IMG/VR virus record: IMGVR_UViG_3300020227_000030
Location: 1 to 39,384 of that record
DNA: 39,384 nucleotides
DNA from: a virus
Taxonomy: Duplodnaviria; Caudoviricetes
Strand: one strand, 5' to 3'
Made by a program: the position numbers and the translations under genes. Positions 79 through 15,589 of the stretch are shown here, in pieces. The notes under the pieces were generated by a model that did no database searches, had not been told where the DNA came from, and saw only the letters and a list, made by a program, of their open reading frames with translations. Each line of letters begins with the position of its first letter. The first letter of the stretch is position 1.

Positions 79-2705
79 TTATTTTACTAATACGACAGCA
101 ACGCCGTAACCTTTGTCACTGTCATAAGGTGTTGTTACTTCTAGGACTCGATAGAAACCGTTGTTATTATCTTTTGTTCCTACACCTTTATTAGGCTTGA
201 TGTAGTCATTGACGGATACGGTTGAATCAATACGGGTATAGACTTGACCCATCAATCCTACGACGTTCCATTCTGGCCGTTGCGCTCGGTCAATATAATC
301 TTCTTTTTCAACAAAATCAGGATTAGGGATTGGAACCTCTACTTCTTCTGAATACCAATTACCTTCGTCATCACACCATGCTTTTGTTTGCCACTCTGTT
401 TGTGTCACACCAAATTCATCTTTTAAGAACTTATCTTTGTGATGGAACATTTGGTCACCCAATACAACACCGGCGGTCCCTGAGATAACACCAATAGGTG
501 TATCGTTTGTGTTCGCTTTACGGATATATCTGCCATCTAACGTAACCATATAGCCATTTTTTATTTCTCGACCACTTTGAGATTCGAAATACTCAGCATA
601 GTCACCAAAGTTTTGTCCAGATGACACGGTGCCTTTGGTCTTAATATTCCCACTAATTGTAGCCATATCAATCGTAGTATTTTCATACTTAGCACCATCT
701 GTACCATAACCCATTTGCCACGAATAATTCCCTCGTGATTTAACACCACGGCTATTAACAATCGTTTGGCAATAAGCGCCAGGTAACGTTTCAGACTCTA
801 AGGAGTTTGTAACTGAACTACGTGAGCCGTGAGCATGTGAACCTGCACCAACACCTGCTAGCCAAGAACGGTCACTATGAGCGTAAGAATTACCAGTAGT
901 AGCTATAACAGCTGAACGTTCAGCAATTGCTGCTGCACCTGTTGAACCACCACTGAACCCACCTTTAACTGCTGTTGGTACAAATCTATAAGCTTTATTA
1001 GTAATGTAAGCTGCATTGTTGTAATTCTCAGCATTTACTCCTATAACTTCAGCTGTGTTGTTGTATAGTTCTAATCCATTACCTGTTCCTTGTCCTTGTA
1101 GGTTGGCATTGATAATACGTAAATCATAAATACCTCCGCCACCTGCAATACCTCTATTTGCTGAAGAATTCCAAATGTTAACGTTACTGATGGTAATTTT
1201 CTTACCTCTGTTACCTCCACCGAATATTTTTATATCTGCTAGTGAGTTCTTAAATCCAGTAATATTTATGTTATTCAACATAATGTTGTTAGACATGAAC
1301 TGTACTGCTACAACTGGCATGTTAGCTGTATACGTTCCATCTCCAACTGCTGTATAACCATTAACTTGTACGTTTCTGTAACCACTAATAACTAATGCAC
1401 GTGGTGTCGTTCCTGGATATACTTTGTTGTCGTACGGTGTGATAGAAGAACAGTTATTCATTATGACACTGTGAGCTGTTTTAGATTTAGGGTCTCCTGC
1501 TCTGTGGTGGCCAATGTGTCTAATATTGTAAGAACGGCTATCTTTAATAGACATGTGATTAGAAATCATAACGTTATTAGGAGCTGATGCAGTAGCATGC
1601 GCTTTAACTTCCACACCACCATAGTTTTCTTCAGTCATATTATTATCTAACATGACATGTTGTGAACCATCATCGATTTCAATTCCATTATTGTTACCAC
1701 CGCCTGTAGCATGGTGTGAATAGTTATTTGTGATAACCAAATATCTTGAATGGTGAGTCGTAATACCATCATCACCAAAGCCACTTGCTTCACAGTTATC
1801 AATATGAATGTAACTACTTTCTAGCTCTTCATTAACTCTTACACCGTCGCCTTCATAGAAATAATCGTCACTAGCATACGTAATATCAATGCCATGTAGT
1901 AATGCATCTACTGATTTTATATTACTTGCAAATCCATGTTTAACACCTGCAAATCTAACATTAGAAGAACGTGAGCCACCTGCAGCTTTGAACTTTTTAT
2001 CTTGTCTCCACTTGTTACCATTAACTGTAAAATCTTTAATCCCAATGTTTTTGCGTTCCCTGTCATATCTTCATTGGTAATTACGATATTTTCGGCGGGT
2101 GTTTCATCTGCAAATTTAATTGTCGTAATATCTTTGCCTTCACCTGATAGTACAGTGTTATTTGGTAATCTGATGCCAGTTACTTTGTAAGTCCCAGCAG
2201 TCATATGAACGTGAACGTTTCCACCTTTTACAGCTTCTTTAAATGCATCCGTCGAGTCTTGTTCTCCTGTAGGGTCTGCCCCGTAATCAATAACATTTAC
2301 AATCCGTTCAACCTTTTTATTAAGATAATTAAAGTTTTCTCCCATCTTGTTTTTAATGATTTCAAAGTCGTATTTTAAACGTTTGGATAATATAGGTTGA
2401 TTAGTACCATCTAAAGCCGTTCTACTGTCCTTAAGTTCTTCGATACCATCGCCATTATGACCAATAATCAAGCCTTCAATGCGTCCATCTTGATTCTGTA
2501 ATTCATCATGAACAGTTGAAAGCTTATAGTCTATTTGTTTTGCATTATGTGCGTGTTTATCAGTGGTTTGATGGTCTTTAATAATATCTATGACTTGCCC
2601 ATAAAAATATTGCACATCTTTAAAATTCTCGACAACCATTTGTCTAAACTTTTGACCTAGATCAATCGGGAAATTGATTTTTAATTTCATTTTCTTTAAT
2701 TTCAT
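79..2705 (-). pseudogene. Tailspike/pre-neck appendage-like protein (beta-helix plus C-terminal peptidase G2 autocleaving chaperone), interrupted by a 1-nt frameshift
   Basis: VNVIDYGADPTG pectate-lyase-like start; DYAEYFES and RPEWNVVGLMGQV C-terminal motifs; adding one A at the A5 tract (2048-2052) joins ORFs 1917-2705 and 79-1740 into 875 aa with no stop. Confidence 0.8.
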
Positions 2706-10627: not shown

Positions 10628-11149
10628 CTAAGACATACCGAAAGCATCAAACATGGAATCCACATGTTGTGTCTTCTTGGTTTCTCCATTCAACTCATCG
10701 AAGACAAAATAAAAAGGCATATCAAGTACAGTGTTAACTGATTGATTGCCGTCTTTTGTCATATCTCTGATTTGCGCTTTAAGGTTGTTTTTGTGGTCTT
10801 CCCAACTATTAACTTTAGTTGCTTTAACATCATTACTAACCTTTTCGTCTATATGTCGACCTTTAGCAACAAATGTGATTTGTTCTATGAGTTCTCGCAT
10901 CGCATTATGACTTGATAAACCATGAATGAGTTGATTTTTAGTGAATTGTTCATCGTAAATCCTAACGACTAAATCTAGCATTTGATGCAGTTGGTCGTTA
11001 TTCATTTTTGAATTTGTAGAGGCTAGGAATGAGGCACATTCATATACTAGAGAGAATTTGATTGTTGGACGTGTAACGAAAGTTTCTTTACGTATAGAGT
11101 TGCCTATTTTGTCAAACTCGGTAACTAGCACAATTTTATTGCTTTTCAT
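10628..11149 (-). CDS. Tail assembly chaperone, GT-like (G domain plus in-frame T extension)
   Basis: N-terminal part paralogous to 11164-11523; C-terminal VLDMPFYFV and SMFDAF; lies before TMP. Confidence 0.75.
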   Translation of the reverse strand: MKSNKIVLVTEFDKIGNSIRKETFVTRPTIKFSLVYECASFLASTNSKMNNDQLHQMLDLVVRIYDEQFTKNQLIHGLSSHNAMRELIEQITFVAKGRHIDEKVSNDVKATKVNSWEDHKNNLKAQIRDMTKDGNQSVNTVLDMPFYFVFDELNGETKKTQHVDSMFDAFGMS

Positions 11150-11163
11150 TCCTTACACACTCC

Positions 11164-11523
11164 TTATTTTGTAAATTCTTTTAAATTTTCTTTTTGTTCT
11201 TGTTTATTAGCTTCTTCTGAGAAAGCGCTAGTTAAGAATGACATTTGTTTTTCAACAACTTCGCCTATTTCTCTAATGTCTACGCCGTCCATAAATTCTT
11301 TAGAAGAAAATTGTTTGTTATATAAATCGCTAACCAAATCAGCCATTAATTTCATTGCTTCAAACTCTGATTTTTCTCCAATACCGTTAAATTCTTCTGT
11401 TGCATCAACTAATTTTGAAAATGGAATAAAGTTTGGCATTGTATATGTTTTTGTTTCTACTTCACCGTCTTTTTTTATTTTTGTTACTAGCTCGATAGTC
11501 ATTTGTTCTTTTTGTTCAGTCAT
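11164..11523 (-). CDS. Tail assembly chaperone G
   Basis: Between major tail and TMP genes; MADLVSDLYNKQF motif; start 11523 follows GGAG. Confidence 0.8.
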   Translation of the reverse strand: MTEQKEQMTIELVTKIKKDGEVETKTYTMPNFIPFSKLVDATEEFNGIGEKSEFEAMKLMADLVSDLYNKQFSSKEFMDGVDIREIGEVVEKQMSFLTSAFSEEANKQEQKENLKEFTK

Positions 11524-11561
11524 TATTAATTGCTCCATTTCTTTTATTAGATTTAAGTATT

Positions 11562-11592
11562 AAAAAGAGAACGAAAATATTCGCTCTCTTTT
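11562..11592 (-). terminator. Intrinsic terminator after major tail gene
   Basis: AAAAGAGAGCGAA-TATT-TTCGTTCTCTTTTT on minus strand. Confidence 0.75.
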
Positions 11593-11608: not shown

Positions 11609-11674
11609 CTATTCAGCTGAAATGATTGCTGATTTACTTCTAGCGTTTATTTCAACATTTCGGGGGTTATTAGG
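11609..11674 (-). other. +1 frameshift extension of major tail protein (PNNPRNVEINARSKSAIISAE)
   Basis: ACA CCC TAA shifty-stop site; 22-codon +1 frame; homologous to capsid extension. Confidence 0.8.
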
Positions 11675-12296
11675 GTGTTTCTGTTTCTGAATCGCCATTA
11701 CCATTTGAGCCATCACTATCAGGGTGTGATTGACCAAATAGTTTGTTCCAAATCGCATCGCGTTTGTCAGTTTTTCCGTCTTCGTCTGCACCTAAGAAGA
11801 ATGATTTTTTCTCTTCGAATCCTTCAACTTCTTCAGGCATAAACGTTCCTGTTACAGAGTCTTGAGAGAATTCAACACCATCTTCTTTTGTTTGTGCTTC
11901 TGTATCGCCCATAGATAAAATACCTTTAGGTAAAGCAACGTATTCAACGCCACCTTGTTCAGTTGTTTTAGCAAACAAAATACTTACATAAGGTGCATTT
12001 GCTTGTCCTACACCAACTAAGCCATCTTCTGATTCTTCTAAACCAAATAACTTAATACGGTCTTCTAATGGTAGTTTATGGAATGATGCCTCAACTTCTA
12101 CTGGTGATGATGCTTGTGCTACTTCTGCTACTTCGTTATCTCCGTATGCAGATTCAAGTGACGTTTCATTACTTACTGATATTTCTTGTAAGTATTTAAT
12201 ACGTTCGGCTTCAGTTCCTCCGTTAACTTTATTTTCGCCATGAATCATATAATAAAATCCTGTTAAACCTGTGAATGATTTATAATTTTTAGCCAT
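11670..12296 (-). CDS. Major tail (tube) protein, phi13-like family
   Basis: SFTGLTGFYY, AYGDNEVAE and TKEDGVEFSQD motifs; synteny. Confidence 0.92.
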   Translation of the reverse strand: MAKNYKSFTGLTGFYYMIHGENKVNGGTEAERIKYLQEISVSNETSLESAYGDNEVAEVAQASSPVEVEASFHKLPLEDRIKLFGLEESEDGLVGVGQANAPYVSILFAKTTEQGGVEYVALPKGILSMGDTEAQTKEDGVEFSQDSVTGTFMPEEVEGFEEKKSFFLGADEDGKTDKRDAIWNKLFGQSHPDSDGSNGNGDSETETP

Positions 12297-12299
12297 ATA

Positions 12300-12716
12300 T
12301 TATTGCTCCATTTCTTCTATATATTTTCGTCCTTTAAATTGCTTTGATTGTCTGTATAAATTGAAATCTTCAATGAATTCAGGTTTCATTGAGTTAAATT
12401 CTGCAAAATCAAATGTTTGCCACATGATTTTGGAGATACGCAAAATAAGCTCCCTAGAAACTAAGGAGCCATTCACGTTATTGCTATTTTGTTTAATGAA
12501 TATATCGATTTGAAAAACATACTCGTAAGTTAACGGGTTATTATCAGCAAAATTATTTGTAGTAGGTGAAATAATTTCATCTATAACAATGAGTGCGTTT
12601 TTTATGTCTTTTGCATTAGGATATGTGTAAAATTTAATATCGTTTTGTTTAATATATTTTGAAATAACAGGGTCATTAACAAATTTTCCGTACATCTCCA
12701 TCATTAAATCCCTCAT
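12300..12716 (-). CDS. Tail terminator/completion protein
   Basis: FADNNPL and FQIDIF motifs; position before tail tube gene. Confidence 0.7.
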   Translation of the reverse strand: MRDLMMEMYGKFVNDPVISKYIKQNDIKFYTYPNAKDIKNALIVIDEIISPTTNNFADNNPLTYEYVFQIDIFIKQNSNNVNGSLVSRELILRISKIMWQTFDFAEFNSMKPEFIEDFNLYRQSKQFKGRKYIEEMEQ

Positions 12717-13108
12717 TTTTTATCAAGTTCTCCTTTAAGAATCTTGAAATACAAATCAGCATTTAATTTGAGTTGCGTATTAACTACGCCTGTACCTTTA
12801 GGCTTATGAAACGACCCATCTTTAAGATAATGACCATGTTCATTAATATAAGCTAATGATTGATGATCACCACGCCAATATAAATTAGCTATCATTTCAT
12901 TACCTACTTTTTGAGGGTCTCTTAAATCAGTCCCTAATGATAATAAACCTGTATCTCTAACACCGTATAAAGATGATGCTACTTTATTTCTTATCATATT
13001 ACCGCCAGCTTTTATCGCTCTTTTTTCAGCTTTATCTATAGCTTTACGGCTGTATTTTGAATAAATTTCTTTTTCTATGAGGTCTAAACCATCAACTTTT
13101 ACGCCCAT
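12713..13108 (-). CDS. HK97 gp10-like neck protein
   Basis: RDTG and YINEHGH motifs; synteny. Confidence 0.75.
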   Translation of the reverse strand: MGVKVDGLDLIEKEIYSKYSRKAIDKAEKRAIKAGGNMIRNKVASSLYGVRDTGLLSLGTDLRDPQKVGNEMIANLYWRGDHQSLAYINEHGHYLKDGSFHKPKGTGVVNTQLKLNADLYFKILKGELDKK

Positions 13109-13443
13109 ATTTTAGACCCCACAATCTTTAAGGTGTTTTCTTCTTTAGGTGCAATATTTTTAATATTAAATTCAGTATCCTTGTACATGCCTGTTTTAAT
13201 TTCGAATGTATTACCCACATCAGGCAAGAATTCAGGATAAGCATTCCTAATAATAACCGTCACGTTAACTGTAGATGTTTCTAAGTTGCCTAAGCTGATG
13301 TCTTTAGAAGAAGGCTCATAAACCTCACACCAAGATTCAAACAAATCATCGTTGCCACCCATACCAGGATATGGGCCATCTTCGGCAACCTTATTAAACA
13401 CAACGTAATCTTTCATTTGGTTAACTCTCATAAGGATATGCAC
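13099..13443 (-). CDS. Head closure/head-tail adaptor
   Basis: WCEVY and VTVIIR motifs; synteny; true start may be 13431. Confidence 0.7.
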   Translation of the reverse strand: MHILMRVNQMKDYVVFNKVAEDGPYPGMGGNDDLFESWCEVYEPSSKDISLGNLETSTVNVTVIIRNAYPEFLPDVGNTFEIKTGMYKDTEFNIKNIAPKEENTLKIVGSKIWA

Positions 13444-13720
13444 CCCTTAACTTTTGAATTGCACCAGTTACGCCATTGGGCATAGCAACATATTGAACGT
13501 CAGAGTAGCCAATTCTACTTTCAAAATAGAATGATGCTAATAAGAAGACGCCTCTTTCATAATGCATATTACCTTCAAAGAAAGACTCATCACGCTTATT
13601 ATTATCAGGATAAACAGCATCTTTAATATCTGCTTCTGCCCATGCTAGATAGCGTTTTATCTCTTTATCTTCCATATTGTGGGTAACATGTAGATGGCGT
13701 TTAAGTTCTTCTACATCCAT
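13421..13720 (-). CDS. Head-tail connector (HK97 gp6-like)
   Basis: ELKRHLHVTHNMED and YFESR motifs. Confidence 0.85.
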   Translation of the reverse strand: MDVEELKRHLHVTHNMEDKEIKRYLAWAEADIKDAVYPDNNKRDESFFEGNMHYERGVFLLASFYFESRIGYSDVQYVAMPNGVTGAIQKLRGAYPYES

Positions 13721-13735
13721 TTAGCTCACCCTTTC

Positions 13736-14266
13736 TTATTCAGCGTTAACATCTGCTGATTCTTCGTCAGGGTCAACTTCTACGTTGTCCGGTTCATCTG
13801 GTGTAGGTTCTTCTTCAGTCTCAACTGTGACTGCACATGTCGCTTTTTTATTACCATCGTTTGTAATTACTTCAATATTAGCTGTACCGTCTGCAACTGC
13901 AGTAATTGTGCCATCTTCATCTACTGTAGCTACATCTCTATTTGATGATGCATAAGATACAGATTTATCTGATGCAGTAGAAGGTGCTATTGTCGCTTTA
14001 ACTGTCTCTGTATCTCCGACATTTAACGTTAAGCTTTCTTTATCAAGTGAAACTCCTGTTACTTTGATTGGATTTGTTTTAAATCCTGGTACATCGGTTT
14101 TGTCTGATTCACCATTTTCGTTTTCCCAAGCAACTTTATAATCACCTGTTGAATATTCAGTATCTGCGTCTAAACCGTCAATAGTAACTGTTGCTTTTCC
14201 GTCTTCTCCACGTTCAGCACTTGCTACTACTTTATCACCTTTATAAACTTTTAAATTATCTGCCAT
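13736..14266 (-). CDS. Ig-like virion accessory protein: partial FN3 domain, Big_2 domain, C-terminal tag
   Basis: VTIDGLDADTEY and WENENGES (FN3 strands E-G); VTGVSLDKESLTLNVG and VATVDEDGTITAV (Big_2). Confidence 0.85.
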   Translation of the reverse strand: MADNLKVYKGDKVVASAERGEDGKATVTIDGLDADTEYSTGDYKVAWENENGESDKTDVPGFKTNPIKVTGVSLDKESLTLNVGDTETVKATIAPSTASDKSVSYASSNRDVATVDEDGTITAVADGTANIEVITNDGNKKATCAVTVETEEEPTPDEPDNVEVDPDEESADVNAE

Positions 14267-14301
14267 TATAAATACCTCCTAAATTTGTAATTAAAAAACC
14301 C

Positions 14302-14367
14302 CTATTCTGCAGTAATAGACGCCGATTTACTTCGAACGTCTACTGCTACATTTTGGGGATTATGAGG
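14302..14367 (-). other. +1 frameshift extension of major capsid protein (PHNPQNVAVDVRSKSASITAE)
   Basis: ACA CCC TCA TAA; 22-codon +1 frame, 12/20 identical to the tail-tube extension. Confidence 0.72.
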
Positions 14368-15589
14368 GTGTATCTTCGTCTTCGCTTTCGCCGTCACCGT
14401 CTAAGTCAACAATTACTGCTGCTTTATGGTCTAATAAACGACAATCTTGACGTAGTGCAACCATTAAACATTCACCATAATGTTTATAGTCTGTCCAATC
14501 AGCTTCATATTGAGAACGTTGGAACAGTGTAATAGCGTCTTTGAGATTACCAAAGATTAATGTATTAGCACCTTTATCACCTAACATTTCGTCAGGTAAT
14601 ACAACCACTTTTGCACCTAATAAACGTTTTTGAGATGACTCTTTAATATCTGGTTGGATTAAATAGCGGTCTTCTTTATCTGCCATTTTATCCAACGTAT
14701 TAAAACCAGTTTGAGAGACGATTGCTACATTATTTTCATAGTTAGGAATAATATGTTTGTTAATAACGTCTTTCAGACCATTAACCTGCTCTTTTGAAGT
14801 ACTTCCTGATACTGTTTCATGAGGTATTTTAGTTTCTTCACCATCTTCACCAGGGCCGCCGTTTTTTAACACTTTGATAATTGCTTGGTTACGAGTTGCT
14901 GCAATTGTACGTGCCATCCATTGTTTTAATTCACCTAACACATCAACTTTTGCGTTTTCGATAGCTTCACGAGAGATACGGAAATAACCACGATGTGTTT
15001 TGATATCATAAGCAAGTTGGAAGAATGGTTTTACTGCTAATTCTGGGTTTTCGTCTAATTCATCAACCTCAGGTAATGCCGATACTTCAGATTGACGTAC
15101 AACTGGATATCTTCCCATTCCATTATCAACTTGTTTAACCGTTACATATTGATCTAAATTAAATTCTACTTCCTTTAATTTAAGAATGTCGTTAACAACT
15201 TCTTCTGGGATTACTACAAATCCTGAATTGGTTTTTAATGAACCTCCCGGTATATCCGCACGTGTTTCAATATATTCTTTGAACTCTCTTACTTCTTGTG
15301 AATCTTCTTCAGTACGATTTTCAAAATTCACGCCCGGTTGAAATGCTGCATTTCCCATATTTCTATTTTCTCCTTCTGTGCCTTGGTTATTTTCATTACT
15401 TTCTTTATTGCTTTCGCCTTCATCTTTTACCTTGTCTTCAACTTCTTTTAGTCGTTCATCAATTTCATTGATTTTATCTACAAGTTCCAAAGCTTCTTCA
15501 GGCTTTTCTTGATTCACTGCTTCATCTGCTCTTTTTTCTAATTGTGCGCGTTCAGCACGTAATTTAATTAATTCTGATTTTGCATTCAT
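14360..15589 (-). CDS. Major capsid protein, HK97 fold with N-terminal delta domain
   Basis: Coiled-coil N-terminus; GFVVIPEE, LPEVDELDENPEL and IFGNLKDA motifs. Confidence 0.95.
   Translation of the reverse strand: MNAKSELIKLRAERAQLEKRADEAVNQEKPEEALELVDKINEIDERLKEVEDKVKDEGESNKESNENNQGTEGENRNMGNAAFQPGVNFENRTEEDSQEVREFKEYIETRADIPGGSLKTNSGFVVIPEEVVNDILKLKEVEFNLDQYVTVKQVDNGMGRYPVVRQSEVSALPEVDELDENPELAVKPFFQLAYDIKTHRGYFRISREAIENAKVDVLGELKQWMARTIAATRNQAIIKVLKNGGPGEDGEETKIPHETVSGSTSKEQVNGLKDVINKHIIPNYENNVAIVSQTGFNTLDKMADKEDRYLIQPDIKESSQKRLLGAKVVVLPDEMLGDKGANTLIFGNLKDAITLFQRSQYEADWTDYKHYGECLMVALRQDCRLLDHKAAVIVDLDGDGESEDEDTPS

Follow-up and report, generated by a model that had tools for sequence, protein, structure and literature searches.

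In Bacillus phage SPP1, the tail-tube gene shifts +1 at CCCUAA, adding an FN3 domain to a fraction of the subunits (3:1) (PMC6316719, PMC8718954). In the baseplate of Lactococcus phage Tuc2009, the 25-residue C-terminal hairpin of BppU completes one sheet of a BppA domain, and the composite resembles a titin domain (PMC4742702; this and the other articles are cited here for the available parts of their text). A split FN3 whose fold is completed by a partner is thus already known in a phage baseplate. We analyzed IMG/VR virus record IMGVR_UViG_3300020227_000030, a 39,384-nucleotide stretch of Caudoviricetes DNA (the window), in which the genes for the major capsid protein and the tail tube protein each end at a putative +1 slip site followed by a hidden 20-codon frame (the tag). 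A separate gene (13736-14266, minus strand) encodes a 176-aa immunoglobulin-like (Ig) protein, which begins with an apparently incomplete domain (the socket) and carries an in-frame copy of the tag at its C-terminus. Sequence, structure models and analogy together make it very probable that the frameshift-made tags would dock the Ig protein on both head and tail by strand complementation.

A predicted split FN3 domain in the window

By Pfam, the minus strand of the window carries a structural module of the siphovirus type, with the following features.

14360..15589, minus: major capsid protein gene, 409 aa, predicted long form 428 aa (Pfam Phage_capsid, PHROG 10)
14366..14368, minus: putative capsid +1 slip site; CCC is codon 408 of 409, in the context CCC-UCA-UAA
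14302..14364, minus: capsid +1-frame tag, 20 codons plus TAG, stop at 14302; predicted plug resembling FN3 strands A-B
14275..14280, minus: AGGAGG ribosome-binding site (RBS) of the Ig-protein gene, read from the sequence
14069..14266, minus: socket, Ig-protein residues 1-66, predicted FN3 strands C-G without A-B (AlphaFold2 (AF2) model and structure alignment; N-terminus of PHROG 341)
13829..14062, minus: Big_2 Ig-like cargo domain, residues 69-146 (Pfam PF02368, E 1.6e-21)
13736..13798, minus: the Ig protein's own tag, in frame at the C-terminus; an acidic version, left undocked by the monomer model
11670..12296, minus: tail tube protein gene, 208 aa, predicted long form 228 aa (Pfam Phage_TTP_1, PHROG 88)
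11673..11675, minus: terminal CCC before UAA, putative +1 slip site of the SPP1 gene 17.1 type (sequence; PMC6316719)
11609..11671, minus: tail-tube +1-frame tag, 20 codons plus TAG, stop at 11609
11562..11592, minus: hairpin and T-run 3' of the tube tag, terminator-like by eye only

The initial annotation had reported three related 20-aa tags, and all three were present, the capsid and tube tags being identical at 12 of 20 positions and the remaining pairs at 9 and 8. In a comparison of every pair among the window's 981 stop-terminated 20-mers (six frames), 1 pair reached 12 identities, 2 reached 9, and 22 reached 8; therefore, the likeness of the capsid and tube tags is unique in the window, and that of the Ig-protein tag is modest on its own. 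The capsid and tube tags are basic, and the Ig protein's own tag is acidic. The capsid gene ends in ACA CCC TCA TAA and the tail-tube gene in ACA CCC TAA. CCC is the rarest proline codon in the window (7 of 242), and these two are the only genes among 34 long open reading frames (ORFs) with CCC within the last two codons.

The assignment of the tag to FN3 strands A-B and of residues 1-66 of the Ig protein to strands C-G without A-B, first made from sequence motifs, is well supported. AF2 modeled the socket alone at pLDDT 91, with residues 19-36 unpaired, and the model aligned to residues ~30-90 of single FN3 domains (7jgu 31-91, 3teu 28-92, and 3pe9 31-89; Z 4.8-5.4). The best structural match was residues 227-284 of Tuc2009 BppA (Z 7.1, rmsd 2.3, 58 aligned). 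Furthermore, in a relative met by chance (L188), the +1 tag of the capsid has the canonical Trp and the next gene begins at strand C; this socket matched Pfam fn3 at positions 32-82 of 84 (E 3e-6) and was aligned to the window socket family by hhalign with a probability of 91.6. A complete FN3 (PF00041) is a seven-strand A-B-E / C-C'-F-G sandwich in one chain; here strands A-B lie in other proteins, and the core Trp of strand B is Ala in all three tags, offset by an aromatic residue in strand F. The second structural match of the socket was residues 4-71 of PDB 9d93 chain Sa, the N-terminal domain of the mycobacteriophage Bxb1 tail-tip protein, which may be another partner-completed FN3.

Tag and socket also occur in a single chain. 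In the natural fusion P0272, a tag at residues 91-112 is followed by a socket at residues 120-176, and several internal sockets are directly preceded by a tag (P0272, P0213, and P0172). A search for longer fused homologs scored 0 of 168 candidates, the fusions being found later among the socket representatives described below; in an Atlas analysis of a natural fusion, all leads were below 0.9.

Tags and sockets in related phages

A tag profile was run on 120 socket-selected loci, which included the window and many near-identical Staphylococcus aureus prophages. It detected 195 tags in 96 loci: 159 in the +1 frame, 14 in the -1 frame after an A-run, and 22 in frame. All 159 of the +1-frame tags were preceded by CCC as the last or second-last codon. 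The tag-bearing proteins were unrelated capsids (about 280-450 aa) and tubes; the tag is reached by three routes, and its length is fixed. Family tags scored 25-60 bits (in-sample), compared with a best score of -0.5 for 31,409 peptides from the opposite strand. Seven of the 24 loci without a profile match were examined: 6 inspected by eye had divergent tags and 1 had its tag 16.6 kb away, and the remaining 17 were Enterococcus loci. Four examined among the 21 profile-missed Enterococcus loci had divergent Leu-type tags. Sextaecvirus PG-2021_46, considered as a case of a socket without a tag, was ruled out, as a tag lies ~16.6 kb upstream. A capsid-based scan of the genome collection yielded 1 locus.

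Among 48 unique +1 tag DNAs, entropy was 1.2 at codon position 3 and 0.55/0.56 at the other positions, and the synonymous fraction was 0.60 in the tag frame versus 0.17 and 0.13 in the other frames. Because the variation sits on third positions and is mostly synonymous, the hidden tag frames are coding and show codon-like purifying selection. That this frame lacks stop codons is a circular argument and carries no weight here. Independent translation was ruled out as a general route to the tags, since 15 of the 48 have no start codon of their own.

Two loci showed variations on the arrangement. In L117:4763-8273, a -1 shift adds a whole Ig-like domain to the capsid, another -1 shift adds a tag to the tube, and a 92-aa socket-plus-tag gene follows the tube tag. 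In a Salinicoccus prophage (L120:6719-10496), capsid and tube genes end in CCC-stop followed by a different +1 tag with Ile-Gly repeats, and the next gene encodes a protein that is collagen-like, has a small N-domain and lacks a socket. Ile/Val-Gly endings resembling this tag were found on some socket proteins (P0203, P0242, P0253, and P0254). The Ile-Gly tag is possibly a second, unrelated plug system.

The socket was matched by 611 phage records, including Triavirus gp38, Kayvirus TmpH, and proteins of enterococcal and lactobacillus phages. Among the best 150 of 368 representatives at E<=0.001, 121 had a near-full domain, placed at the very N-terminus in 107 and internally in 14. The cargo of the socket varied and included a GDSL esterase (Kayvirus), CotH-like, G5 and HeH/LEM domains (P0240, P0164, P0223, and P0237), as well as collagen-like repeats recognized by eye (L006:6001-6567). 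Seven representatives consisted of socket and tag only, with the tag beginning 8-10 residues past the strand-G Phe; this resembles the junction between consecutive domains in tandem proteins, 7-12 residues in the clear cases. Socket-only proteins also occur.

A survey of the co-occurrence of tag and truncated FN3, proposed with the initial annotation, was made on 69 loci fetched by tube or capsid homology, of which 35 were complete enough and non-duplicate. Among these mutually related loci, 7 had both parts, 28 had neither, and none was discordant. The 34 dropped loci, partial or duplicate, included 2 with both parts, 1 truncated before the socket position, L188, and L185. Because a single lineage seems to account for most of the 28 negatives, the co-occurrence is supportive rather than a significance test.

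The Ala of the tags and the Trp of the partner had been read as a compensatory swap. The reciprocity stood: in 22 hand-picked loci, a small tag residue pairs with a strand-F aromatic (10) or Arg (2), and a Trp or Leu tag pairs with a strand-F Ala (9) or Arg (1). The specificity for Trp did not, as the strand-F residue, Trp in the window, is Phe in 109 of 121 homologs (Trp in 8, Arg in 1, unparsed in 3). The strand-B Trp was kept in the tags of 8 of the 22 loci. This canonical type occurs on head and tail in L189-L191, L194, L195, Enterococcus phage VD13 (by -1 shifts), and Carnobacterium phage cd3, on the head in L192 (a short contig), and at the baseplate of a Latilactobacillus phage. In Latilactobacillus phage TMW 1.1381 P1 (L199:3127-4960), a baseplate protein with a -1 tag is followed by a socket-plus-tag protein and then by another socket protein, an order of genes that may represent a BppU/BppA-like chain made via frameshift.

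Proposed docking, possible chains and alternative explanations

In the proposed mechanism, a fraction of ribosomes would slip +1 at the rare terminal CCC of the capsid and tube genes, and each slip would add the conserved tag, predicted to form FN3 strands A-B. The tag would complete the half-domain lacking A-B at the start of the separately encoded Ig protein, as in Tuc2009 BppU/BppA, and the completed FN3 would dock the Ig protein on head and tail alike. The displayed Big_2 domain could then serve as a weak accessory adhesin, in keeping with the established role of Ig-like domains on phages. The initial annotation had the frameshift rate set the decoration density; it is not the only determinant, because some phages carry the tag in frame.

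Virion data from relatives bear on this mechanism. Staphylococcal phage phi12 carries both tags and an Ig-protein homolog, gp38, which is a major band in procapsid/tail preparations (PMC8569155). The phi12 capsid protein runs as bands of 29.5 and 32.6 kDa, both without the N-terminus (PMC8569155). The predicted +1 form is 32,310 Da, compared with 30,375 Da for the short form, and by our own reinterpretation the 32.6 kDa band may be the +1 long form. In phage K, one unit encodes gp116 (210 aa, in-frame tag), gp115 (socket, Big_2, and tag), and gp114 (socket only), and the tail sheath (L207:679-2442) has an internal tag-like segment at residues 275-293, as it does in the L087 genome. A PDB chain of 9ROX/9ROZ corresponds to gp116 over residues 2-175, and the sequence listed for it ends before the tag. 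Virion mass spectrometry of phage fRuSau02 included a 210-aa protein and a 73-aa TmpH (PMC5618024), and Kayvirus TmpH was located on the tail by immunogold (PMC8236893), a name that covers paralogs of different length.

Several results weigh against docking through frameshift-made tags. The capsid slip site is CCC-UCA-UAA and not CCC-stop. The authors of the phi12 study put the second capsid band down to a second cleavage site, and the available part of their text assigns no 32.3 kDa electrospray ionization peak and lists a single tail-tube band (PMC8569155); a search of its supplement text gave no matches, and the apparent gap between the capsid bands is 3.1 kDa versus 1.9 predicted. The available parts of the cryo-electron microscopy papers on phage 812 mention no such decoration of the sheath (PMC13433997, PMC12886913). 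The window socket has no Pfam match, fn3 included, and the confident AF2 model of the lone socket gives no sign that a partner is needed. All VIA structure-alignment Z values were below 8, the fold scores being middling, and Foldseek of the socket model gave no match at E<=0.001; Foldseek of the full-length Ig-protein model was dominated by Big_2, a PDB sequence search with the socket gave a chance match only, and a PDB profile search gave only weak FN3/BppA rows (BppA E 0.027). L185 has a tag without a visible socket on a broken contig. The co-occurrence set is phylogenetically clumped, and so is the swap set, which covers about three lineages. Only 41 of 120 close homologs retain a C-terminal tag of their own.

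The Ig protein had been described as an adaptor, and this role was amended. Since the protein has a tag of its own at the C-terminus, a copy once bound would present a further plug, and we regard the chances for and against short non-covalent chains as evenly balanced. Socket-plus-tag proteins hold socket and donor tag within one subunit, with a junction of tandem-domain length, and the tagged protein, the socket-plus-tag-only proteins and the socket-only proteins together suggest chains with caps, built of anchor, extender and cap. A less probable arrangement, which would replace the chains and leave the docking in place, is that the socket of the Ig protein is closed by the tag of the same chain, giving a circularly permuted FN3, the virion tags docking only by displacing this self-tag, which would serve as stabilizer or gate. 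We consider this unlikely, though still a serious competitor. The retained self-tags of the homologs are consistent with it, and a jack-knife bend between socket and Big_2 is possible; however, AF2 left the self-tag undocked (pLDDT 63/50), and the 8-10-residue junction of the seven socket-plus-tag-only proteins, like that of tandem domains, suits head-to-tail binding.

It is improbable that the tags are made and useful but act alone, through surface charge, contact with the host surface or tag-tag pairing, with a socket that folds alone or homodimerizes and binds the virion otherwise. The confident model of the lone socket and the opposite charges of the virion tags and the Ig-protein tag fit such a role, yet it leaves the strict co-occurrence, the natural tag-socket fusions, the reciprocal small/aromatic swap and the BppU/BppA precedent unexplained. 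Less probable again, and to be given little weight, is that the tags are functionless remains of a whole FN3 once added by frameshift, as in SPP1 gp17.1*, and later broken by a stop. Bacillus phage 268TH008 does retain the unsplit state, a whole FN3 added by a +1 shift, and the tag is often directly upstream of the socket gene; such a remnant would not be expected to show codon-like purifying selection and a fixed length, to be duplicated on head and tail, to be reached by +1, -1 and in-frame routes, or to be missing wherever the socket is. A second recoding event (read-through or hop) that fuses tag and socket covalently into a long capsid protein is the least credible of all, since the 35 nt between the capsid tag stop and the Ig-protein ATG, close as they bring the two, are out of frame and contain a strong RBS, the socket start is ~2.4 kb upstream of the tube tag, and phi12 gp38 was seen as a separate 16 kDa protein (PMC8569155).

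Docking by strand complementation with the frameshift-made tags thus remains the preferred explanation. A broader proposal, to which we give slightly less than an even chance, is that phages of Bacillota, therapeutic Kayviruses included, build non-covalent FN3 fibers on head and tail, each unit completed by two donated strands. Tags, whether frameshift-made or in frame, would be the anchors, socket-cargo-tag proteins the extenders and socket-only proteins the caps; the cargo would be pluggable (Big_2, G5, HeH/LEM, GDSL esterase, or collagen), and the 20-codon cassette would move between unrelated capsid and tube genes. Docking through the tags, if true, would explain how the large socket family, its members mis-annotated as "major tail proteins," attaches to virions, assign a role to the hidden 20-codon frames that annotation overlooks, and predict the identity of the unexplained capsid band of phi12. 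It would also link SPP1-type recoding and Tuc2009-type fold completion in one modular display system, and the tag peptide and the 7 kDa domain would be a natural tag-and-catcher pair.

The 90% cluster of the Ig protein is named after Staphylococcus shinii and S. pseudoxylosus; therefore, the host is likely a xylosus-group staphylococcus. Elsewhere in the window, a pre-neck appendage gene (PHROG 4775; 79-2705, minus strand) is split over two ORFs with a frame change near 1917-1975, by mutation or assembly error, and the corresponding stretch is a single annotated gene in several relatives. Positions 10628-11538 (minus strand) hold two consecutive Phage_TAC_19 tail-chaperone paralogs and not one frameshifted pair. 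A promoter/terminator scan of the window found nothing exceeding chance and missed the hairpin downstream of the tube tag.

Comparison with known systems

The closest parallel is Tuc2009 BppU with domain 2 of BppA (PDB 5E7T), in which a C-terminal hairpin of ~25 residues on a structural protein completes a domain of ~57 residues in an accessory protein. The window likewise has an accessory FN3 without its first hairpin and structural proteins ending in a matching peptide of hairpin length, although here the completion is predicted from sequence and model. In Tuc2009, an in-frame hairpin acts at the baseplate on a C-terminal socket, with a carbohydrate-binding module (CBM) as cargo. In contrast, the window has its capsid and tube tags behind putative frameshift sites and an N-terminal socket with Big_2 as cargo, and the adaptor carries its own tag; a baseplate version is found in L199.

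SPP1 gp17.1/gp17.1* shares with the window a tail-tube gene ending in CCCUAA and FN3 sequence in the +1 frame. At the end of both window genes, a rare CCC overlaps a Pro codon of a conserved +1 frame, from which slippage is inferred. SPP1 adds a whole 87-aa FN3 in cis, whereas the extension in the window is 20 aa, strands A-B only, with the rest in a separate gene, and the capsid is also tagged. Listeria phage PSA (NC_003291 annotation) has slippage annotated at CCC in both cps and tsh, with sense codons following the CCC in cps, like the capsid site of the window. Unlike those in the window, the PSA extensions are not tags. PSA and A118 were considered as candidate validated cases, but the first 14 kb of the records taken as theirs gave no tag and no socket.

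The Kayvirus TmpH region (phage K gp116/gp115/gp114) and Triavirus gp38/orf151 (PHROG 341) share the socket family and the tags; they are annotated as major or minor tail proteins and are known virion proteins, and the available parts of the articles describe no way in which they attach. In chaperone-usher pili, an incomplete Ig-like sandwich is completed by a strand of a partner, which allows head-to-tail chains. Unlike the pili, the present system would use FN3 and not the pilin fold, two C-terminal strands and not one N-terminal strand, and no chaperone or usher, so this is a resemblance only. Anastellin, which presumably offers a further parallel, appeared as a weak Foldseek row of the socket (1q38).

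The initial annotation knew of no description of the mechanism, but one exists for the principle of fold completion (PMC4742702). The combination was not found in the open-access literature searched, which gave no account of frameshift-made tags completing a separate FN3, none of head and tail both tagged by frameshift, of one cargo adaptor shared across Bacillota phages or of chainable socket-plus-tag units, and none of the phage K set of tagged Ig-like protein, internal sheath tag, TmpH-type extender and socket-only cap. In their available parts, PMC8718954, PMC13370021, PMC6669499, PMC12917162, and PMC9230969 describe whole Ig or CBM extensions and no others, or have no bearing on the matter, and none of the phage papers examined reports, in the parts available, filaments of the donor-strand type. 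The proposed system joins two known devices, the recoding of SPP1 and the fold completion of Tuc2009.

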